Source: an uncultured Methanosarcinales archaeon (GTDB lineage Archaea > Nanobdellota > Nanobdellia > Woesearchaeales > JAGVZT01). Taken from it: a stretch of DNA of 64,000 nt. The translations under genes and the position numbers were made by a program. The stretch covers positions 7,857 through 71,856 of the forward strand of contig CAYQPU010000001.1 of NCBI GenBank assembly GCA_964419615.1. The letters are read 5' to 3'. Below are positions 879 through 10,426 of the stretch, in pieces (position 1 is the first letter of the stretch; the number at the start of each line of letters is the position of its first letter). The notes under the pieces are model-generated. The model saw only the letters and a list, made by a program, of their open reading frames with translations. It had not been told where the DNA came from and did no database searches.

Positions 879-1004
879 GGGCCCGTAGCTCAGTTGGTAG
901 AGCGTCGCCCTTGCATAGGGAGATTCTTCCAAAAGACAGGCGGAGGCCTCGGGTTCGAAAACGGGATCCAATTATGGAACCGGGTGAAAGCCCCGACGGG
1001 TCCA
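879..1004 (+). tRNA. tRNA-Ala (anticodon TGC) with two introns (one after anticodon position 37, one in the T-loop)
   Basis: GGGCCCG acceptor 5' arm / CGGGTCC 3' arm plus discriminator A; D-arm GCTCAGTTGGTAGAGC; anticodon loop CTTGCA; removal of about 22 nt (tagggagattcttccaaaagac) and about 32 nt (acgggatccaattatggaaccgggtgaaagcc) restores anticodon and T stems; sits in 16S-23S spacer as is typical for archaea. Confidence 0.7.
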
Positions 1005-2247
1005 TTTTCGATTACAGAAAATGACCCTCCGAACGAAAGTGAGGTTGGGTCAATTTCATATTCAATCACAATCATTTAATCAAAATGGTTTGGTTATCAG
1101 CAGAATACCAAACCTTCGGCTAAAACATCATGTTAATGCGGCCATGCATAAGTTGGAAAGGCTAAGCTATTAGGTGGATGACTCGGCTCAAGAGCTGATG
1201 AAGGGCGTGACAAGCTACGATATGCTTTGGCGAGCCGCATGTAGGCATTGAACCAAAGATACCTCAATCAGACTTCTGCTTGAATCAGTAATGATGGGAA
1301 ACGCAGGGAATTGAAACATCTTAGTACCTGCAGGAAAAGAAATTAATAAAGATGCTGCTAGTAACAGCGAGTGAAAGCAGCTTAAGGCAAACTGAATCCC
1401 TTTTTGAAAGAGAAGGGAGATGTGGTGTTATAAGACTACCTTTAAGCCCTATTCTGGCAACCTAAACTCTCCTGGAAAGGAGGACCATAGAGTGTGATAG
1501 TCACGTAAGGGTAACTGGGATGGGCCATGGTATGTTCTTGAGTACCTTTCGCTGGAAACCGAGAGGGAATTTGGGAGGCATCAACTTCCAACCTTAAATA
1601 CTACTTGAGTCCGATAGCAAACAAGTACTGTGAAGGAAAGTTGAAAAGAACCCCTAACAGGGAGTTAAAAGAACCTGAAACCTAATAGCGATCGTGTGGT
1701 ACCGCTCTACGGAGTTGTACCGTTCGTTTCGAATAACGTGCCAGGGAGTGTATTTGTGTGGCAAGGATAATCTAAAAGAGGATCCAAAGCGAAAGCAACA
1801 AACCCGCAGCTTGCGAGGGGTGGGGTGTGAAAGCGCCCATAGTCACATGGATACGATCTGAAGCTGGGCGATCTACGCTTGGGCAAGGTGAAGCCAGAGT
1901 AAAATTTGGTGGAGGCCTGAAAAGGTTCTATGGACAAGTGTTCTTCTGATCTGAGTGTAGGGGTAAAATGCTAATCGAGCCCAGCAATAGCAGGTTCCTG
2001 CCAAAGTTGGCTGTAGTCAAATCTCGGTGGAGATGGCTGAGGAGGTAGAGATACGGATTGAGAGTTTAGGCGTGGAGACACGTCGGCACTCTGTCCAACT
2101 CCGAATGCTTCAGCATCATAGATGCCGGGGGACGGGGGCGTGGGGTAAGCCCATGTCCCGAGAGGGGAACAACCCAGACTATAGTTAAGGTCCCAAAGTA
2201 CTAGTTAAGTGTTAAAGGCTAAAGAGTGTTCATTTCCCAAGACAGCG

Positions 2248-2280
<33 letters not shown>

Positions 2281-3108
2281 AAGTGCGTAACAGCTTACTC
2301 GTCAAGGAAGTGGGCCTCGAAAATGGACGGGGCTAAACTAGTCACCGATACTATAGAGTTTTGTAAAAAATTTGGTAGGCAGGCGTTCTGTTTGGATAGA
2401 AGTGTGTCTGCGAAGATGCATGGACCGGATAGAAATGAGGATCCTGGCGGTAGTAGGATCTGAGCAGCTTGAGAATAGCTGCCACCGTAAGGGCAAGGGT
2501 TCCTTGACAATGCAAATCAGTCAAGGGTAAGTTGGTCCTAACTGACTTCATAACTAGAAGTAATGAGGAAAGGGAAACAGGTTAATATTCCTGTACTATT
2601 TAGGTATCCGGCGACGAAAGCCTTGTTTCTGACGCTTTTGGGTAAGTTATCACTGTTTGTCTGCAGTGTTAACCAGCATAAATCTGTGGAGTATCTTAAT
2701 GATGAGAAACAGATTAAAGCTGGGATGAGCATCCTTCTGGGATGTATAGCTGATCCCTGGAGCCCGTGAAAAAGGAACAAGGATAAATTCTAAATAACCA
2801 TACCCAGAACCGACACAGGTGCCCCTAGGTGAGAAGCCTAAGGTGTGAAGGGACAATCCAATTAAGGGAAATCGGCAAATTAGCCCCGTGTCTTCGGTGG
2901 AAGGGGTCCCTGCGATTGTGTTCGTATGAATGCGATTACAGGGCGCAGTGACAAGGGGGGTCCGACTGTTTAACAAAAACATAGCCAACTGCCAACCCGT
3001 AAGGGCTAGTATAGTTGGTGACGTCTGCCCACTACCAGTACTTTAAACTCCTTTACAAGGGAGCGAAGAGCTGGCAAAGGGCGGGAGTAACTATAACTCT
3101 CTTAAGGT

Positions 3109-3830
3109 GAAAATCGTTGCCTTATCAAAATCTAGCTATATGCTCGAATATCTGGTGTATCTCATGCTACCAGTGGACATATGTGCGTAAGACTTTTTAA
3201 GTTTGATCACATATGAAGACTGGTGAAAATGCAATGAGTGCAGACAACGAGCAGGAAAGGCTAAATACAGATTGGGTTGTTGGATTCGTTGATGGTGAAG
3301 GATGCTTTCATGTTTCAATTAATAAAATTTCAAAGATGTCTTTGGGATGGCAAGTTCTTCCAGAATTTCGTGTTGTTCAACATGAAAAAGAAGTGAAGAT
3401 TTTGTTACAATTACAAAGGTTTTTTGGAATGGGAATTGTTGTTAAAAATCATGGAAGCAGAAAAGAGCTAAGAATAAGAGGTCATAGTACTCTTAAAGAA
3501 TTAGTTCGATTCTTCAATAAAAATCCACTGAGAACATCAAAACAAAAAGATTTTGAGATATTTGCTCAAATAATCAGTTTGATGGATCAAGGGAAGCATC
3601 TCACAAGAGATGGTTTGAAGAAAATTTCAATTCTTCGGTCAAAAATGAACCGACAAGTTAAACCAAAGTATTTAGAATCCCCAGAGACTATACGCTAGAC
3701 ACATAATATTGTGTGAAGACATAGTCCGACCCACTAGGCGACTAGTGGAGGTGTGCAGAAATGTGCATCCACCATCATCAAGATGGTCAAAACCCTAACT
3801 GTATTTTATGGGTTTAAAGTAACAGATGTG
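3109..3830 (+). mobile_element. 23S rRNA intron carrying a homing-endonuclease ORF, inserted between CTCTTAAGGT and AGCGAAAT(A/T)CCTTGTCG
   Basis: Conserved 23S sequence is colinear with E. coli/archaeal 23S on both sides of a ~720-bp insert; the insert contains a LAGLIDADG ORF. Confidence 0.7.
3213..3698 (+). CDS. LAGLIDADG homing endonuclease (single-motif, I-CreI-like), intron-encoded
   Basis: Motif VVGFVDGEGCF followed by a basic/aromatic pattern (QLQRFF, KN...KQKDFE) typical of single-motif LAGLIDADG enzymes; located inside the 23S intron. Confidence 0.8.
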   Translation: MKTGENAMSADNEQERLNTDWVVGFVDGEGCFHVSINKISKMSLGWQVLPEFRVVQHEKEVKILLQLQRFFGMGIVVKNHGSRKELRIRGHSTLKELVRFFNKNPLRTSKQKDFEIFAQIISLMDQGKHLTRDGLKKISILRSKMNRQVKPKYLESPETIR

Positions 3831-4795
3831 AGCGAAATACCTTGTCGTTTGAATGACGACGTGCATGAATGACGTAACGAGATCCCCACTGTCCCTAATT
3901 GGAACCCTCTGAACACTCTATTCTGGTGCAGAAGCCAGAGATTTCCAGTGGGAAGTGAAGACCCCGTGAAACTTTACTGTAGCCTGTTGCTGTGATGCGG
4001 ATGTTGTTGTATAGTGTAGGTGGGAGTTGCTAAAACTTGAGTCGAAAGACGAGAGATCAGACGACAATGTAACACCACTCTTCATAATTTGCATTGCTTA
4101 CTCGAAAGAGGACACCAATTGGCAGACAGTTTGGCTGGGGTGGCACGCTGCTGAAATAATATCAGCAGCGCCCAAAGGTTGACTCAACGCGGTCGGAAAT
4201 CGCGTGTGGAGTGCAAGGGCATAAGTCAGCCTGAATGGATTCTCACTAAGACAGATTCCAGCAAAGAAATTTTGGCCTAGCGAACCTCTATGTCCTCCTT
4301 GATGGGGGCTAGAGATGACCGAAAAGTTACTCCGGGGATAACAGAGTTGTCTCCCCCGAGCGTTCACAGTTGCTTGCGGCTATTGGTCGCAAGCGACCGA
4401 ACAGAGCGACGGGGAGGCTTGCTACATCGATGTCGGCTCTTCCTATCCTGGTGGTGCAGAAGCCACCAAGGGTGGGGGTGTTCACCCATTAAAAGGGATC
4501 GTGAGCTGGGTTCACAACGTTGCGAGACAGTTGGTTTAATATCTACTGGAAATGTAAAATGTCTGAGAGGAAGGATGTCAAAGTACGAGAGGAACTGGCA
4601 TTCGAGGCCTCTGGTCTACCGGTTGTCTGACAAGGCAGGCCGGGCAGCTACGCCTTAGAGGATAAGAGCTGAAAGCATCTAAGCTCGAAACCTCCCCCGA
4701 AAATAGACATTTATAGAACTCCTGCAGAACACAGGTTTGATGGAGCTGGGGTGTAAGTACCAAGGTAACGAGGTATTCAGCCCGCAGCCACCAAA

Positions 4796-4903
4796 AGTTC
4801 TTACTCAACTATGCATGGTTTTTTCATTTTTTTTTCTATTTCATTTCAACATAAACAATATTGGTATAGTGTAAGCTATGTTGTTATGATTAGTACAATA
4901 ATT
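4796..4903 (+). repeat. Direct repeat copy 1: 23S 3' terminus (agttcttactcaactatgcatgg) plus about 85 bp of trailer
   Basis: Imperfect direct repeat (roughly 80 percent identity by eye) with 5888-5986; both contain agttcttactcaactatgcatgg, ataaaca(t/a)tattg and agctatgttgt-attattagtacaa. Confidence 0.75.
4819..4837 (+). terminator. T-tracts (TTTTTTcaTTTTTTTTT) immediately after the 23S 3' end; probable rRNA operon terminator
   Basis: Archaeal termination occurs at oligo-T; located directly after helix-1 closing strand. Confidence 0.35.
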
Positions 4904-4954
4904 CCAATTGGAACTAAAATTAAATTATATGCAAAAAATAAAAAATTAGAATTG

Positions 4955-5788
4955 TTATCTTAGTTTTTTCTTCTCTTTTTTCTTTGGTAAAAAGTTTTCT
5001 TTAGAAATAGTTGATTTTCCTAAACGTTTTTCAACGCTTTTTCTTGCGTCATTTGCAGCTTCTCCACCTTCTTTAGCAGAATCTTTGCATTCACCAAATC
5101 CTTGAGAATTTCTATCTTTTGTAATTTCAGTAGTTGTCTTTTCTCCAAGCATAGTAAATATTAACTCTAAATCAGTCATATGATCCCTTAAATTTTGGTT
5201 TTTCTTTTGTAGTCGCTTGAATTCTTTATACTCTCCCACTGTTTTTCCAAATGTTGCTTTACTAATCTCATTTGTTAATATTGCAAATTCTTTTTCTGTT
5301 TTGATATCCCTATTTTCCCATTCGTCAGTCAATTCTTGTCTTACAGAAATTCCTCTTAGTCTTTTGTCAATCCACTCTTTAGGATAACCTTTGAGTTCAT
5401 AGTATTCTTTTATTCTATTTTGTCCAATTTCTGGATTTTCAATTTCTTCAATTCTTTCATATCCTACTTGTGCTAACCATTGTTTGAATGGTTCTGCTTT
5501 CGGAGAGGGTATTGCTTGTATTAGTCGAAAAATCTCTTTAGTGTTTCCTACATCTGTTAGTCGCATTTTACCATCAGGAGCAGACATTTTCAAAGCGTTA
5601 CAATTTGTAACGGTTTCATTTCCTTCATCTTTTAATCTTTTTTTGAGAACTCTCCAATAAATTTGAGGGTTATCACTTTCAGTTAAAACAGCTATGATGT
5701 CAACTATAGAGAAATACCATTCATCATTATTCCAGATTCGTCTTATTTTCTTGTCTTGAAAGACAACAAGTTTATTATTTTCTTCCAT
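4955..5788 (-). CDS. Bro-N domain / DinD-like (DNA-damage-inducible protein D family) protein, MGE-associated
   Basis: N-terminal Bro-N-like block (VVFQDKKIRRIWNNDEWYFSIVDIIAVL); C-terminal block KKNQNLRDHMTDLELIFTML resembles the DinD family; K-rich tail. Confidence 0.55.
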   Translation of the reverse strand: MEENNKLVVFQDKKIRRIWNNDEWYFSIVDIIAVLTESDNPQIYWRVLKKRLKDEGNETVTNCNALKMSAPDGKMRLTDVGNTKEIFRLIQAIPSPKAEPFKQWLAQVGYERIEEIENPEIGQNRIKEYYELKGYPKEWIDKRLRGISVRQELTDEWENRDIKTEKEFAILTNEISKATFGKTVGEYKEFKRLQKKNQNLRDHMTDLELIFTMLGEKTTTEITKDRNSQGFGECKDSAKEGGEAANDARKSVEKRLGKSTISKENFLPKKKEKKKLR

Positions 5789-5887
5789 TTATAAAGGAAT
5801 AAATTATTTATCTTTAAATACTCTACGTCAAAATGTCCAGTGGATAAACAAAACAACTAGAATCAACCGCAAAGGCCAGTTCCTAAC

Positions 5888-5986
5888 AGTTCTTACTCAA
5901 CTATGCATGGCTTTTTATTTTTTATTAATTTTCTACATAAACATTATTGACATAATGAGAGCTATGTTGTCATTATTAGTACAACA
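5888..5986 (+). repeat. Direct repeat copy 2 (duplicate of 23S 3' terminus plus trailer)
   Basis: See copy 1; the two copies bracket the DinD-like gene. Confidence 0.75.
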
Positions 5987-6083
5987 AAGATTATTATCTT
6001 AGAAGGAATTTATGTAATTAAAAATCAAAATTGTCAGAATTAATATAAATAGAATTTAATTCCCATAATTAAGGGGTTATTGA

Positions 6084-6803
6084 ATGAACAATAAAAAGGA
6101 AAGGCCATTTACAGAAATACTGTCAGAGATTGCAGAATATGAAGATGGAAATGTACTGCTGGCAGAGATACTTCAAGAGATCGGTAAGCATGATAATCAA
6201 AGAGTACTCAAAAAAATAGGCTTAAAAAATTGGTTCAAAGATCCTAAGAAATCCTATAAAGCATATTTTACCAGTCAGGATCAGTTAAAGGGGGATGTGG
6301 AAAAACTGTTAGTGGCCAATTCATCTATTGATAAAGTGTGCGAAGATCTGGAAGGATTGGAACATGAAGAACACTTCAAATACGGGAGTGTTAAGACCAC
6401 TTTTCCAGGTAGAATACTTATTCCCAATATTGGATGGATACCAGTTAATAGCGAGGCACATATTATACTAAGTAAAAGCTATAGAGAATGGTCAGAAAAA
6501 CCTATTGATATTGATGAACTTAAATTTGAATTAAATCCTTCTCAACTTTATGAAAAGATTGCTCAACATAGATTTAGTATGGGTTCGTGGATTGATGATC
6601 CGGGTTATGAAAGCGAATTACTTGATACAGTTGAAAGTGCATTGAAGTTAGATTATTTGCTTTTAGTGGATGAATATAAAGGTAAGCTTAGTAAACAAGT
6701 AGAAAAGTCTATCAGAATATATGATGTATATGCTTCAGATATGAAAATAACACAAGGTGGGAGATTGGTAAATTTAACCTCTAAATTTGTTGATTCTACA
6801 TAA
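6084..6803 (+). CDS. Hypothetical protein (orphan A), no recognisable domain
   Basis: 239-aa ORF with good coding appearance; first of three co-directional orphan genes. Confidence 0.5.
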   Translation: MNNKKERPFTEILSEIAEYEDGNVLLAEILQEIGKHDNQRVLKKIGLKNWFKDPKKSYKAYFTSQDQLKGDVEKLLVANSSIDKVCEDLEGLEHEEHFKYGSVKTTFPGRILIPNIGWIPVNSEAHIILSKSYREWSEKPIDIDELKFELNPSQLYEKIAQHRFSMGSWIDDPGYESELLDTVESALKLDYLLLVDEYKGKLSKQVEKSIRIYDVYASDMKITQGGRLVNLTSKFVDST

Positions 6804-6942
6804 AAATGCAATCAAGAAGATGATGTTGTTATGTTCTCTACAACAAAAGTTTATATACTAGTTACCACTCTTAAATAACAAATAATCGAAAGATTTATAT
6901 AGATGTAAATAAATCTTTAATGTAACAATTGGGGGTATTAGA

Positions 6943-7686
6943 ATGGGAAGAAATTTATCAAAAGATGTTTCAGATTTATTTAAAAATATGGTTTTAGCTG
7001 AGCAAACAGCTTTAAGTTTAGGATCTGAAGAAATAATAGAAATATTTGGTTATGGAACGGTTAGAGATATTGTTAAGCCTAATATTCCAGCATCATTTGT
7101 TGGCGCAGCATGGGATTATAATACAGAAAAAGTAGTAAGTTTTTCAGCAGAAAAAATGTTCAACTATGGTGGAGCTGCAGGAGCAATAACTCCTGGAAAT
7201 GAAATTCCTAATGAAACTGTTTTTGCAATGAAAACTGAAGCTGAAAGAACTGCAAGAAATAAAGCAGTAAGTGATTATGGTGATTTAATTGATGAAAAAG
7301 CACAGGAGGCAAAAGAATTTGCAAAAAGGATTACTGATGCTCAAGATTACTATGAATCTCCTCCAGAAGATGCAGATTATCAAACAATGCATGCAAATCT
7401 AGATTTTTTAATTAATGAATGTGGTACAACTTTTAGAACTCGCCCAGACACAACATACAGACAATTACAATTTGTTGTTAATAGAATTGAATCGCACATA
7501 GGATTATTCACTGAGAACCATCTATCTGAAATTCAAGATGAATTAGAACAATTAAGAGGACTTAAAAAATTCATAAAAGACAAAAAATATTTGGGTAGAG
7601 AAAAACAGTTTGAAAATACATTAGATCCTGAGGCTGTTGCTACAGTTAGGATGTATGAAATTGAACAAAGCAAGCAAAGTGAATAA
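6943..7686 (+). CDS. Hypothetical protein (orphan B)
   Basis: 247-aa ORF; 4-bp gap to next gene (operon-like). Confidence 0.55.
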   Translation: MGRNLSKDVSDLFKNMVLAEQTALSLGSEEIIEIFGYGTVRDIVKPNIPASFVGAAWDYNTEKVVSFSAEKMFNYGGAAGAITPGNEIPNETVFAMKTEAERTARNKAVSDYGDLIDEKAQEAKEFAKRITDAQDYYESPPEDADYQTMHANLDFLINECGTTFRTRPDTTYRQLQFVVNRIESHIGLFTENHLSEIQDELEQLRGLKKFIKDKKYLGREKQFENTLDPEAVATVRMYEIEQSKQSE

Positions 7687-7689
7687 AAG

Positions 7690-8778
7690 ATGAACAAAAA
7701 ACAAAAAAGAGTTGAGGATTTTGTAGTTGGAGTAAGTGATTGTGTTAAACAGCTTAATGCAATTGAACATCAACCAGAAATTAACCTTTGGCCTGTTTTT
7801 AATTTTGGTTTCGATTCTTATGTTTTCTATTTGTTCGTTGAACAGGGATTTTTAGGAAAGTATCACCACAATATGAATAGTAGACATCAATTTGAACAAG
7901 CAAGAAGAGATGCTGAAGATAGAGCTATTGGAGCAGATGATGAACTTGCCACTTTGTATAATGGTGTGAGACAGACTGCCTTTGAAGGGGACGACTTTGA
8001 AACTTTAACAGGTCTACTTGGACAATTAAAAGTTAAAGAAAATAGAGGTGACATTGGTTTTACTTGTCATCTGAACTTAGAAGAATTATACAGTGAAGCA
8101 GAGTTAACATTGGAAATTGCTGAAAGTTTAAGAGATCAAGGTAATATTGAAGCAAGATTTTTGGTTGATAGATTAGAAAACTTGCTTTCAAAAGACAAAA
8201 TTGGTGGTGCAAGAGGTCTCCCAGCAGACTATGTTGACCAAATGAGTATTGATTCGATTGCTAGAATCATGTTTAATGGTGATGCTCCAAGAAAAGTTCC
8301 AAAGTTCAAAGTGCCAAAAAGAAGTGGGGATATGTATGTTATTAAAACTGCTTTAGGTTTGAATGATATTGGAAGATTAACTAATGAATATGCTAAGGTT
8401 GGTGCATGTGAAAAATTCGAAATTTCCCCTGAACAAGCTGCAAGAGAAACTGTTGAACTGTTAGATGAACTTTGTATTACTTCAGGCGCAGTTGTCGATG
8501 CTGTTATGGGTTATATAAAGAATTTGAGTGAACCGAGTGGTCCTTATTCAAAAAAAGAGAGAGGATTTACAAGAGGAAGATGGGCTCATCCAAGACCTGG
8601 TATTGAAACAACATGCTACTGTGTTAAAGATATGCTGAAAGAATGTGCTGCTTTTGATAATAAAACAACAGTAGATAATATTAGAAGAGAATCTCTAAAA
8701 GTGTATGCTAATTCAAGAGGAAAACACCTCCAAATTAGACATGTTACTGGACTTGAATATGTTCCTGTTGTTATCTGA
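7690..8778 (+). CDS. Hypothetical protein (orphan C)
   Basis: 362-aa ORF tightly coupled to orphan B; converges on and overlaps the membrane operon end by 8 nt. Confidence 0.55.
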   Translation: MNKKQKRVEDFVVGVSDCVKQLNAIEHQPEINLWPVFNFGFDSYVFYLFVEQGFLGKYHHNMNSRHQFEQARRDAEDRAIGADDELATLYNGVRQTAFEGDDFETLTGLLGQLKVKENRGDIGFTCHLNLEELYSEAELTLEIAESLRDQGNIEARFLVDRLENLLSKDKIGGARGLPADYVDQMSIDSIARIMFNGDAPRKVPKFKVPKRSGDMYVIKTALGLNDIGRLTNEYAKVGACEKFEISPEQAARETVELLDELCITSGAVVDAVMGYIKNLSEPSGPYSKKERGFTRGRWAHPRPGIETTCYCVKDMLKECAAFDNKTTVDNIRRESLKVYANSRGKHLQIRHVTGLEYVPVVI

Positions 8779-10426
8779 TAGCAGTTTGTAGTTCTCTTCT
8801 CGCTTGCTTATAGAGATTTTCGTGACTACTTAATTCATTTCTTTGTTCCTGCAATTTCATTAAACGGCCATCATCTCTTTCTAAGTTTCTAACCATCCTC
8901 AAGCATTTATTGATCTTTTCTCTCACATCACTTAAGATTGTCACTCTTGGACTTCTCCAGTATCCTTCCAATTCTCCCTTTATACCATCAAACTCATTTT
9001 GTTCTTGCTGAAGATTTTTATATTCATCTTTTAAATTCCAAGAACATCTTCCAGTAATCCCATCTGAATCTGTTATCTCTGCTTTAAGGTCCTTTAAGGA
9101 AGCCTTATAATGGTCTAGATGATCTTTTAATGTCTTATGGTGGCCTCTTGCAGTATTCTTTTCAGCTCCGTCTGTCATCCTGTCAACTTGCTGGCTCAAT
9201 TGATTTGCTTCATTTAGCAAGGTTTGATATTTTTTATCTTCCATAACTTCTTTCTTTGAGATCTTAATCACATCTACAACAATTTCCAGACTCTTTTTAA
9301 TTTCCTTAGATATAACACTTACTCTTCCAATAATTGTCTTAATAAGAGCATGTCTTTTTGGAATACTCTTTGCTCTCTCACCTTCACTAACAGTTACTCC
9401 CAATTCCTGATCTATCTGCTCAAGTTTTGTTACTGCTGCTTCAAGCTTTACAAGATCCTGCTCCATGTGTTCATTGCTTCTATGCAAGCTTGACTTTAGT
9501 TGAGTATTTTGTGTAGCGTATTTATGTTTCTTTTCTCGAAACTCCTCAACTTCTTTATCCTTGGTGGTCATATTGCTCCACCATTCTCTTAGTTTTCCAC
9601 CAGCTTCCATTGTTGGGTCTGCTTCTGCTGCTCCTTTCCATGCACCACCTATACCTTTTACTGTATATCCAAGTGTCATCAACATAAGTATTCCTTCCAT
9701 AACACTAAAGATTACCATATAAGGTCCAGTTATATCTGGAGCCGGAGGTGCTGCAGATACTGCAAAAGCACAAACTATTGTTGAAAATAATACCATTGAT
9801 AGAATTGATTTCTTTTTCCTTTTGTTAAAAATTAATCCAAAAGGTAAAAAAACAGGATATGGTTTTAAGTAAGTTGCCAAATTATTTACAGCAGTAGCAA
9901 ATTGAGCTTTTGTACTTCCCACTATTAACAAAGTGATTAGACTTAATCCAGCTTTGATCCAATTATTTCTCGGTGTACTTGGTAATCGAAAAATGAGAAT
10001 CAACATTACTACAACTACTAATGACATCATAATAAAAATAAGACCTGTTATCCAATTCCCGAATAAGGCATAGAAAAATCTTGGCTGAAAATTCATAAGA
10101 ACTGCTATCATTGCTGTTAAAGCACCACAAACCATCATCCTAATTCTTAGAGGAATTGGTACCAAACCAGTTAATCCATATAAAATTGCGAATACGATAA
10201 TTGCAGAAAAAGCAATTAATATCCCAAAAGCCCTTGCTGGTGAACCAAATAATGGTAGTGAGAATATTTGTTCAACAAACCCAAAAGCATCAGCCACTAA
10301 TTTTACCAACTCTTGAAATTGGTTTCCTGCTGGAGCTCTTCTTGGTTGAGCATACACCATAGTAAAACCCAATAATAATATTAACACAATCATCAATCCA
10401 ATTTTTGTTCTCTTTTTCATTTTCAT
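8771..10426 (-). CDS. Polytopic membrane protein with about 300-aa C-terminal coiled-coil region; N-terminal module paralogous to 11479-12105 product
   Basis: Signal peptide ending VYAQ, then shared block NQFQ(E/D)L..L..(A/V)F.F...(I/M).LP(L/M)F..P..AFG, several TM helices, then heptad-rich charged C-terminus. Confidence 0.6.
   Translation of the reverse strand: MKMKKRTKIGLMIVLILLLGFTMVYAQPRRAPAGNQFQELVKLVADAFGFVEQIFSLPLFGSPARAFGILIAFSAIIVFAILYGLTGLVPIPLRIRMMVCGALTAMIAVLMNFQPRFFYALFGNWITGLIFIMMSLVVVVMLILIFRLPSTPRNNWIKAGLSLITLLIVGSTKAQFATAVNNLATYLKPYPVFLPFGLIFNKRKKKSILSMVLFSTIVCAFAVSAAPPAPDITGPYMVIFSVMEGILMLMTLGYTVKGIGGAWKGAAEADPTMEAGGKLREWWSNMTTKDKEVEEFREKKHKYATQNTQLKSSLHRSNEHMEQDLVKLEAAVTKLEQIDQELGVTVSEGERAKSIPKRHALIKTIIGRVSVISKEIKKSLEIVVDVIKISKKEVMEDKKYQTLLNEANQLSQQVDRMTDGAEKNTARGHHKTLKDHLDHYKASLKDLKAEITDSDGITGRCSWNLKDEYKNLQQEQNEFDGIKGELEGYWRSPRVTILSDVREKINKCLRMVRNLERDDGRLMKLQEQRNELSSHENLYKQARRELQTAIR

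Follow-up and report, generated by a model that had tools for sequence, protein, structure and literature searches.

Genes A, B and C and their two protein families

We analyzed a 64-kb stretch of archaeal chromosome (contig CAYQPU010000001.1; hereafter the window), which has about 32% GC and an rRNA operon at its start. The locus under study lies just downstream of the large-subunit (LSU) rRNA and holds three co-directional genes, here called A, B and C (Table 1). Homologues and gene order place A, B and C in a conserved gene module, rare and previously undescribed, of which they are the soluble half and which occurs in four uncultivated archaeal lineages. An earlier note on this DNA, made from the sequence alone, had described three co-directional open reading frames (ORFs) of 239, 247 and 362 aa, and an 8-nt overlap between the end of C and that of a convergent membrane-protein operon, here the 551-aa gene; both descriptions proved accurate, coordinates included. 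The 4-bp spacing that it gave for B and C needs a small correction: the linkage is indeed tight, but the gap itself is 3 nt (4 being start minus end). The junction reads TAA-AAG-ATG with B and C in the same frame, a spacing consistent with translational coupling, and A and B are separated by 139 nt.

Table 1. Features of the 64-kb window, numbered from its first nucleotide (TM, transmembrane; BRE, transcription factor B recognition element; SD, Shine-Dalgarno; SSU, small subunit)
Feature	Positions	Strand	Description
Gene A	6084-6803	+	239 aa; soluble, acidic; AB family; own promoter
Gene B	6943-7686	+	247 aa; AB family; directly upstream of C
Gene C	7690-8778	+	362 aa; soluble, mostly alpha-helical; C family
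Palindrome GTTGT-N10-ACAAC, first copy	5966-5985	+	118 nt upstream of the ATG of A; candidate operator
Palindrome GTTGT-N10-ACAAC, second copy	6825-6844	+	118 nt upstream of the ATG of B
B-C promoter and 5' leader	6874-6953	+	BRE/TATA-like CGAAAGATTTATATAG; purine-rich SD-like GGGGGT
M551	8771-10426	-	551 aa; signal peptide, polytopic membrane domain, two further TM helices, long coiled-coil tail
M349	10439-11488	-	349 aa; N-terminal TM anchor (GPYIAVL...K...), one TM segment, beta-rich domain
M208	11479-12105	-	208 aa; signal peptide, ~4 TM helices; first gene of the membrane operon
Bro-N gene	4955-5788	-	Pfam E 4e-13; PADLOC PDC-S13 E 5e-122
Bro-N cassette	4902-5884		~1.09 kb
Direct repeats	4793-4901, 5885-5987		~110 nt each
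Copies of the LSU rRNA 3' end	4796-4818, 5888-5910		23 nt, exact; within the direct repeats
MNT-type nucleotidyltransferase	12637-13143	+	toxin-antitoxin pair with HepT
HepT ribonuclease	13127-13543	+	toxin-antitoxin pair with MNT
SSU rRNA, 3' part	1-736
tRNA match	879-1004		126 nt
LSU rRNA	1147-4814
LAGLIDADG ORF	3213-3698	+	inside LSU rRNA; Pfam E 4e-25
Second ORF inside LSU rRNA	4290-4658	+	122 aa; no Pfam match

A, B and C are real protein-coding genes and look expressed. ORFs of their length are expected by chance at 32% GC only 1e-4 to 9e-9 times per window, and the codon-usage log-odds are positive solely in the annotated frame (A 0.33, B 0.53, C 0.43; host genes 0.37 +/- 0.08, n = 30). 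ORF length and a frame-specific coding score thus mark all three as genuine genes of host-like composition. The locus is 100% identical across several JGI and ENA metagenome assemblies, and these identical copies represent one clonal population. In two ENA contigs the locus is joined at short shared k-mers to bacterial-looking S16-like and NadD-like fragments (L003, 1-221; L006, 1288-1533). The diverging ends of these contigs were considered as strain variants and rejected as assembly chimeras; the database entry P0001, a supposed 359-aa “variant” of protein C, is an artifact of them.

All three proteins are acidic and soluble, and by sequence check none of them has a TM segment, signal peptide, P-loop, HExxH or CxxC. 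The best Pfam E values were 0.06-0.2, all well below gathering scores, and neither NCBIfam nor the PDB sequences gave a significant match. With PHROGs and PADLOC added to these collections (see below), the view of the earlier note that A, B and C hold no recognizable domain or motif stands. Homology to well-characterized housekeeping families, which that note had named as evidence against its proposal, was found in neither Pfam nor NCBIfam.

The description of the three proteins as orphans holds only for one kind of search. In a word-indexed search of 5.8 billion proteins, A, B and C each matched themselves only, and the 64-kb window contains no further paralogue of any of them. Exhaustive HMMER searching of 1.84 billion representatives, with A, B and C joined as one query, did uncover rare remote homologues. 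C matches P0011 (345 aa, contig L018, E 1.2e-17) and P0013 (367 aa, contig L020, E 3.2e-13) along most of its length, and P0014 (255 aa, contig L021) matches A (E 1.4e-4). All three are singletons, and they share with a 223-aa protein encoded on L020 the lack of any Pfam or NCBIfam match above cut-off. By blastp, C matches the 345-aa protein of L018 at 7e-29 and the 367-aa protein of L020 at 3e-20; B matches the 223-aa protein of L020 at 5e-12 and P0014 at 2e-5; and A matches P0014 at 2e-9 (1.7e-9). AB- and C-family proteins are about 25-35% identical between lineages and keep their full length. By these matches and by its place in the gene order, B is the positional orthologue of the 223-aa protein and of P0014.

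The three orphans of the earlier note are not three unrelated proteins: profile comparisons show two families, with A and B as diverged paralogues. Blastp does not link A to B directly (E 0.84), but a profile built from B, the 223-aa protein of L020 and P0014 aligns by hhalign with residues 63-217 of A (probability 92.6%, E 4.7e-7). The shared blocks of the AB family are F-x-Y-G-S/T, F-x3-P-x3-Y and KYL...G-x-L-x-P...V/I-R-x-Y-E/D. Relative to B, A has an extra N-terminal region of ~62 aa and lacks the central helical insert. Because L020 has one AB gene only, A is most simply a lineage-specific duplicate. An N-terminal domain shared between the AB and C families was considered and rejected (hhalign probability 0.5%).

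Within the C family, alignment reveals a conserved F-x-G-D-x-P block and invariant residues that are mostly hydrophobic. The cluster C309-x-C311-x7-C319 was considered as a metal site of C and rejected because the cysteines are not conserved in P0011 or P0013; with P-loop, HExxH and CxxC lacking as well, nothing places A, B or C in a metal- or nucleotide-binding class. Pattern-seeded scans for the C family and for the membrane-domain family described below gave no confirmed relatives in GTDB genomes, JGI metagenomes or IMG/VR. Structure prediction with Foldseek, which the earlier note had suggested for all three proteins, was carried through for C alone and produced no specific fold match. The AlphaFold2 (AF2) model of C from the three-sequence alignment is helical and marginal, with a predicted local distance difference test (pLDDT) score of 58.7 and a predicted TM-score (pTM) of 0.43; a single-sequence model (pLDDT 32.8) was unusable. 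Foldseek against PDB and BFVD returned nothing of note at E <= 0.1 (best BFVD match E 0.1, TM-score ~0.2), and the fold searches gave generic helical bundles only. These matches cover less than one third of the protein, involve designed proteins and show 13-18% identity; the resemblance is one of secondary-structure class, not a family assignment.

Gene order across lineages and the convergent membrane operon

An AB-family gene is found directly upstream of a C-family gene in all four lineages, and in each of the three contigs that reach beyond C the pair converges on homologues of the 208/349/551-aa membrane operon. Contig L020 (11.7 kb) carries PGI, SIS, L15e, AlaRS, the 223-aa AB gene and the 367-aa C homologue, which converge on genes of 219, 119, 200, 354 and 202 aa, followed by a radical SAM-HHH gene. 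On contig L018 (3.1 kb), the tail of an AB-family gene and the 345-aa C homologue converge, with a 4-nt overlap, on genes of 211, 309 and 153+ aa; the first 67 nt of this contig encode a stretch that ends in GKLDPALVARIKMSEL and a stop, which is the AB-family C-terminal signature. On contig L021 (1.2 kb), P0014 overlaps by 8 nt the next ORF, which looks C-like by eye at its N-terminus but has no significant blastp match (0.09). The 3' ends at the convergent junction overlap by 8 nt or 4 nt, or lie 2 nt apart, in the three contigs, and the outer flanks of the module differ between the window and L020. The same genes therefore recur in the same order and orientation, in divergent genomes and between different flanks, as is expected of a conserved module. 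The suggestion that A, B and C are candidate components of an undescribed module gains support here, from the AB-C pair in four lineages and the same membrane operon in three contigs.

The best-conserved member of the module is M208, which is 49% identical to the 202-aa protein of L020 (blastp 8e-54). M349 is the positional orthologue of the 354-aa protein of L020 with a diverged C-terminal half. A profile of that protein and the 153-aa protein of L018, which match each other by blastp at 2e-30, aligns by hhalign with residues 4-184 of M349 (E 1.7e-5, probability 78%); blastp gives 0.005. M551 has a membrane domain paralogous to M208 (blastp 7e-21), its N-terminus matches the 200-aa protein of L020 (2e-20), and M551 also matches the 309-aa protein of L018 (1e-13). 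Between the two other contigs, the 119-aa protein of L020 matches the C-terminus of the 309-aa protein of L018 (6e-9), and the 219-aa protein of L020 matches the 211-aa protein of L018 (3e-7). M551 is a single fused protein where L020 has three genes (200, 119 and 219 aa; 6645-8259) and L018 has two (309 and 211 aa; 1102-2641). An internal TM region of M551 (about residues 229-275, GPYMVIF...) resembles the N-terminal anchor of M349, with a charged residue in both helices.

Stator-like assemblies such as ExbB/ExbD/TonB and TolQRA combine a polytopic protein, a single-pass protein and a coiled-coil anchor. The membrane operon may be likened to them in composition: it encodes two paralogues of a ~4-TM protein, a single-pass protein whose TM helix holds a charged residue, and a long helical protein anchored in the membrane. 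It differs from them in that no sequence or profile similarity to these systems was found for its proteins in Pfam or NCBIfam, and in that the membrane proteins of the window operon have cleavable signal peptides. The analogy is offered as a lead only.

Upstream elements and the Bro-N cassette

The palindrome GTTGT-N10-ACAAC occurs in exact form twice in 64 kb, upstream of A and upstream of B. A motif search gave three matches where 0.01 were expected. A consensus derived solely from the pair of copies on either side of Bro-N matched one further site at <=4 mismatches, the one upstream of B, where 0.2 were expected. In L020, GTTGT-N10-ACAGC is found once, at 4727, which by blastn offset (L020 4739-4802 to window 6837-6901) is the position homologous to that of the second copy; the pattern GTTGT-N10-ACARC is conserved upstream of A, of B and of the L020 orthologue. 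The element is a candidate operator, and a protein bound to it could co-regulate A and B-C. An RNA hairpin or terminator was considered for the palindrome and rejected, as the structure is not stable (z about -0.4). Homology of the A and B upstream regions over ~150 nt was likewise rejected (alignment z = 1.7), and only the palindrome and its equal spacing to the ATG hold up.

Downstream of the second palindrome lie the predicted promoter and leader of the B-C unit, with TATA and SD assignments read from the sequence by eye. The B upstream region is 82% identical to positions 1-79 of L021 over 82 nt (E 2e-14), an overlapping promoter stretch is 77% identical to L020 4739-4802 (E 8e-6), and no Rfam family matches the promoter/leader region. 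The usual relation of coding to non-coding conservation is inverted here, with promoter/leader DNA 77-82% identical where the encoded AB proteins are ~25% identical. Fast protein evolution or very strong promoter constraint could account for this.

A Bro-N gene adjoins A in the window, within a cassette between direct repeats that are ~80% identical (z = 28). Each repeat takes in the oligo-T terminator region and 23 nt that are identical to the LSU rRNA 3' end, and the pair resembles the att-like duplication that an insertion at this site would leave. The 23-nt core occurs in the window solely at 4796 and 5888, so that it brackets the Bro-N cassette and not A-C; an exact search for this 23-mer in GTDB genomes and JGI metagenomes gave no matches. 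Flanked by its own repeats, Bro-N is a separate insertion between the rRNA terminator and the control region of A, and not as part of the module. Although it is the immediate neighbor of A in the window genome, Bro-N (PDC-S13) has no sequence relation to A, B or C and is absent from L020. No integrase was found within 4.8-14.3 kb, and nothing indicates a site-specific integrative element at the LSU rRNA 3' end that would span A-C. The Bro-N protein has its closest relatives, about 50-54% identical in amino acids, among phage contigs from the human gut.

From this neighbor the earlier note had raised a viral or defense role for A, B and C, for which the searches offer no backing. PHROGs gave a best E of 0.02 for A, B and C, and their homologues have no PHROG match either. 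In PADLOC-DB 2.0, the sole match is a weak one of A to NsnC (E 0.012, 13 bits), with none for B or C; the homologues show nothing beyond coiled-coil noise (in the 219-aa protein of L020). No relatives of A, B or C were found by tblastn in 50,697 phage and virus genomes, and scans of 2.9 million IMG/VR contigs with A, B and C singly and with the profiles of the C family and of the membrane domain found none either. The neighbors of the module in L020 are housekeeping genes, with neither Bro-N nor toxin-antitoxin genes. In the two informative loci, no defense or mobility association recurs, the window module being flanked by Bro-N and a MNT/HepT toxin-antitoxin pair and that of L020 by L15e/AlaRS and radical SAM-HHH.

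Functional interpretation and genomic setting

We propose, at roughly even odds (a probability of about 0.5), that A, B and C act in the cytoplasm as non-enzymatic partners of the membrane/coiled-coil complex encoded by the convergent operon, and that their co-regulation runs through the palindrome. The core of the module is an AB-family gene with a C-family gene right behind it, a spacing consistent with translational coupling, and the pair converges on an operon for two paralogous polytopic signal-peptide proteins, a single-pass beta-rich protein and a membrane-anchored coiled coil. In the window genome, the AB gene and its upstream control region would have been duplicated, giving a monocistronic A and a bicistronic B-C, and a DNA-binding factor recognizing the palindrome may then co-regulate the two units. 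A non-enzymatic partner role is suggested because the three proteins are acidic and helical and carry no catalytic motif; they would act as cytoplasmic partner or adaptor subunits that associate physically with the membrane proteins. The process served may be related to the envelope or to cell-cell interaction in a small-genome archaeon.

Several points weigh against this proposal. The two operons lie on opposite strands with separate promoters, and for this reason the functional link between them rests solely on a juxtaposition kept in three contigs. Relatedness of the four organisms could partly account for the shared gene order, although AB and C proteins diverged to 25-29% identity and flanks that differ speak against a very close kinship. 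The palindrome is short, and a third copy, found shortly after the LSU rRNA, is degenerate. With only 3-4 sequences in the AB family and in the C family, the conservation statistics and the structure model are weak, and the fold searches return generic helical bundles only.

The main rival is that the AB-C and membrane operons are functionally independent neighbors, A-C being lineage-specific cytosolic proteins (e.g. nucleic-acid-binding or regulatory) whose position is historical. This appears unlikely, though the opposite strands, the separate promoters and a palindrome that stands upstream of A and B only and not of the membrane operon speak for it. Against it, the convergent junction has been kept in three contigs despite AB/C divergence to 25-29% identity, while the outer flanks differ between the window and L020. 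It is improbable that the module is instead the cargo of a defense or mobile island, an anti-virus or conflict system in a variable region beside the rRNA operon. The placement between the Bro-N/PDC-S13 gene and the MNT/HepT pair in the window, the extremely sparse distribution and an arms-race-like pattern in which the proteins have diverged far more than the promoter would all fit such cargo. However, no PADLOC model matches the module proteins or their homologues beyond coiled-coil noise, A-C have no nuclease, ATPase or other effector motif, their GC content and codon usage are host-like, and Bro-N is an independent repeat-flanked cassette. In L020, moreover, the module sits between AlaRS/L15e and a radical-SAM gene, with no defense or mobility genes.

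If the locus were what is left of an integrated archaeal virus or plasmid, A-C could be its structural or nucleoprotein components and the membrane proteins would belong to its envelope; this would explain why the proteins cannot be annotated, why the membrane proteins carry signal peptides and why the locus adjoins att-like direct repeats at the LSU rRNA 3' end. We nevertheless consider it very improbable: those repeats flank Bro-N only and not the module, neither PHROGs, phage genomes, IMG/VR nor BFVD folds yielded a match, and the module and the genes beside it do not encode an integrase, a replication protein, a capsid protein or a packaging ATPase. That the ORFs are spurious, decaying or non-functional can hardly be entertained, even with no annotated homologues to vouch for them, given a length far above chance, a coding signal specific to the annotated frame and a locus that is 100% identical in several independent assemblies; homologues that keep full length and gene order in other lineages effectively refute it.

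Returning to the partner proposal, a broader version can be put forward only speculatively and is itself unlikely. Here the six-gene module would be an undescribed envelope-associated apparatus of a small clade of low-GC, probably small-genome (DPANN-like) archaea, in which fast-evolving cytoplasmic AB and C proteins under a strongly conserved operator/promoter couple to the membrane/coiled-coil complex, perhaps mediating cell-cell or host interaction. Should the module prove to be a functional unit, archaeal cell biology gains an uncharacterized membrane-associated system, none of whose components can be assigned to a known family or fold, and six genes and one operator motif make it a defined target. 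The relatives and synteny recovered by exhaustive search shift A, B and C from possible annotation noise to a conserved system, and illustrate that “orphans” of word-indexed searches can have relatives and conserved synteny when searched exhaustively. Uncultivated archaea probably contain many lineage-specific clusters of the same kind. With four lineages, all uncultivated, the family is extremely rare, which for now limits the practical impact.

The remainder of the window is that of an ordinary archaeal chromosome, with TrmB, metallophosphoesterase, ABCE1/RLI, Band-7, Orc1/Cdc6, superoxide dismutase (SOD), peroxiredoxin and aminoacyl-tRNA synthetase genes from ~15.5 kb on. In the rRNA operon, the LSU rRNA spans 3668 nt against a model of 2987 positions, and an intron-like insertion within it encodes a LAGLIDADG homing endonuclease; the second ORF inside the LSU rRNA is listed in Table 1. 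A tRNA match between the SSU and LSU rRNAs was obtained with Rfam only, ARAGORN reporting no tRNA anywhere in the window, and probably represents a spacer tRNA with an intron. The MNT/HepT pair comes right after the membrane operon in the window and has no counterpart at the orthologous locus of L020. Further along, a sibling-strain contig (L011, 1463-2811 against window 14399-16020), whose 208-aa protein is identical to that of the window, has two small ORFs of 64 and 61 aa where the window has the TrmB-like regulator gene, and its version of the 154-aa winged helix-turn-helix (wHTH) protein is 140 aa long. These differences are local, strain-level variation just beyond the module.

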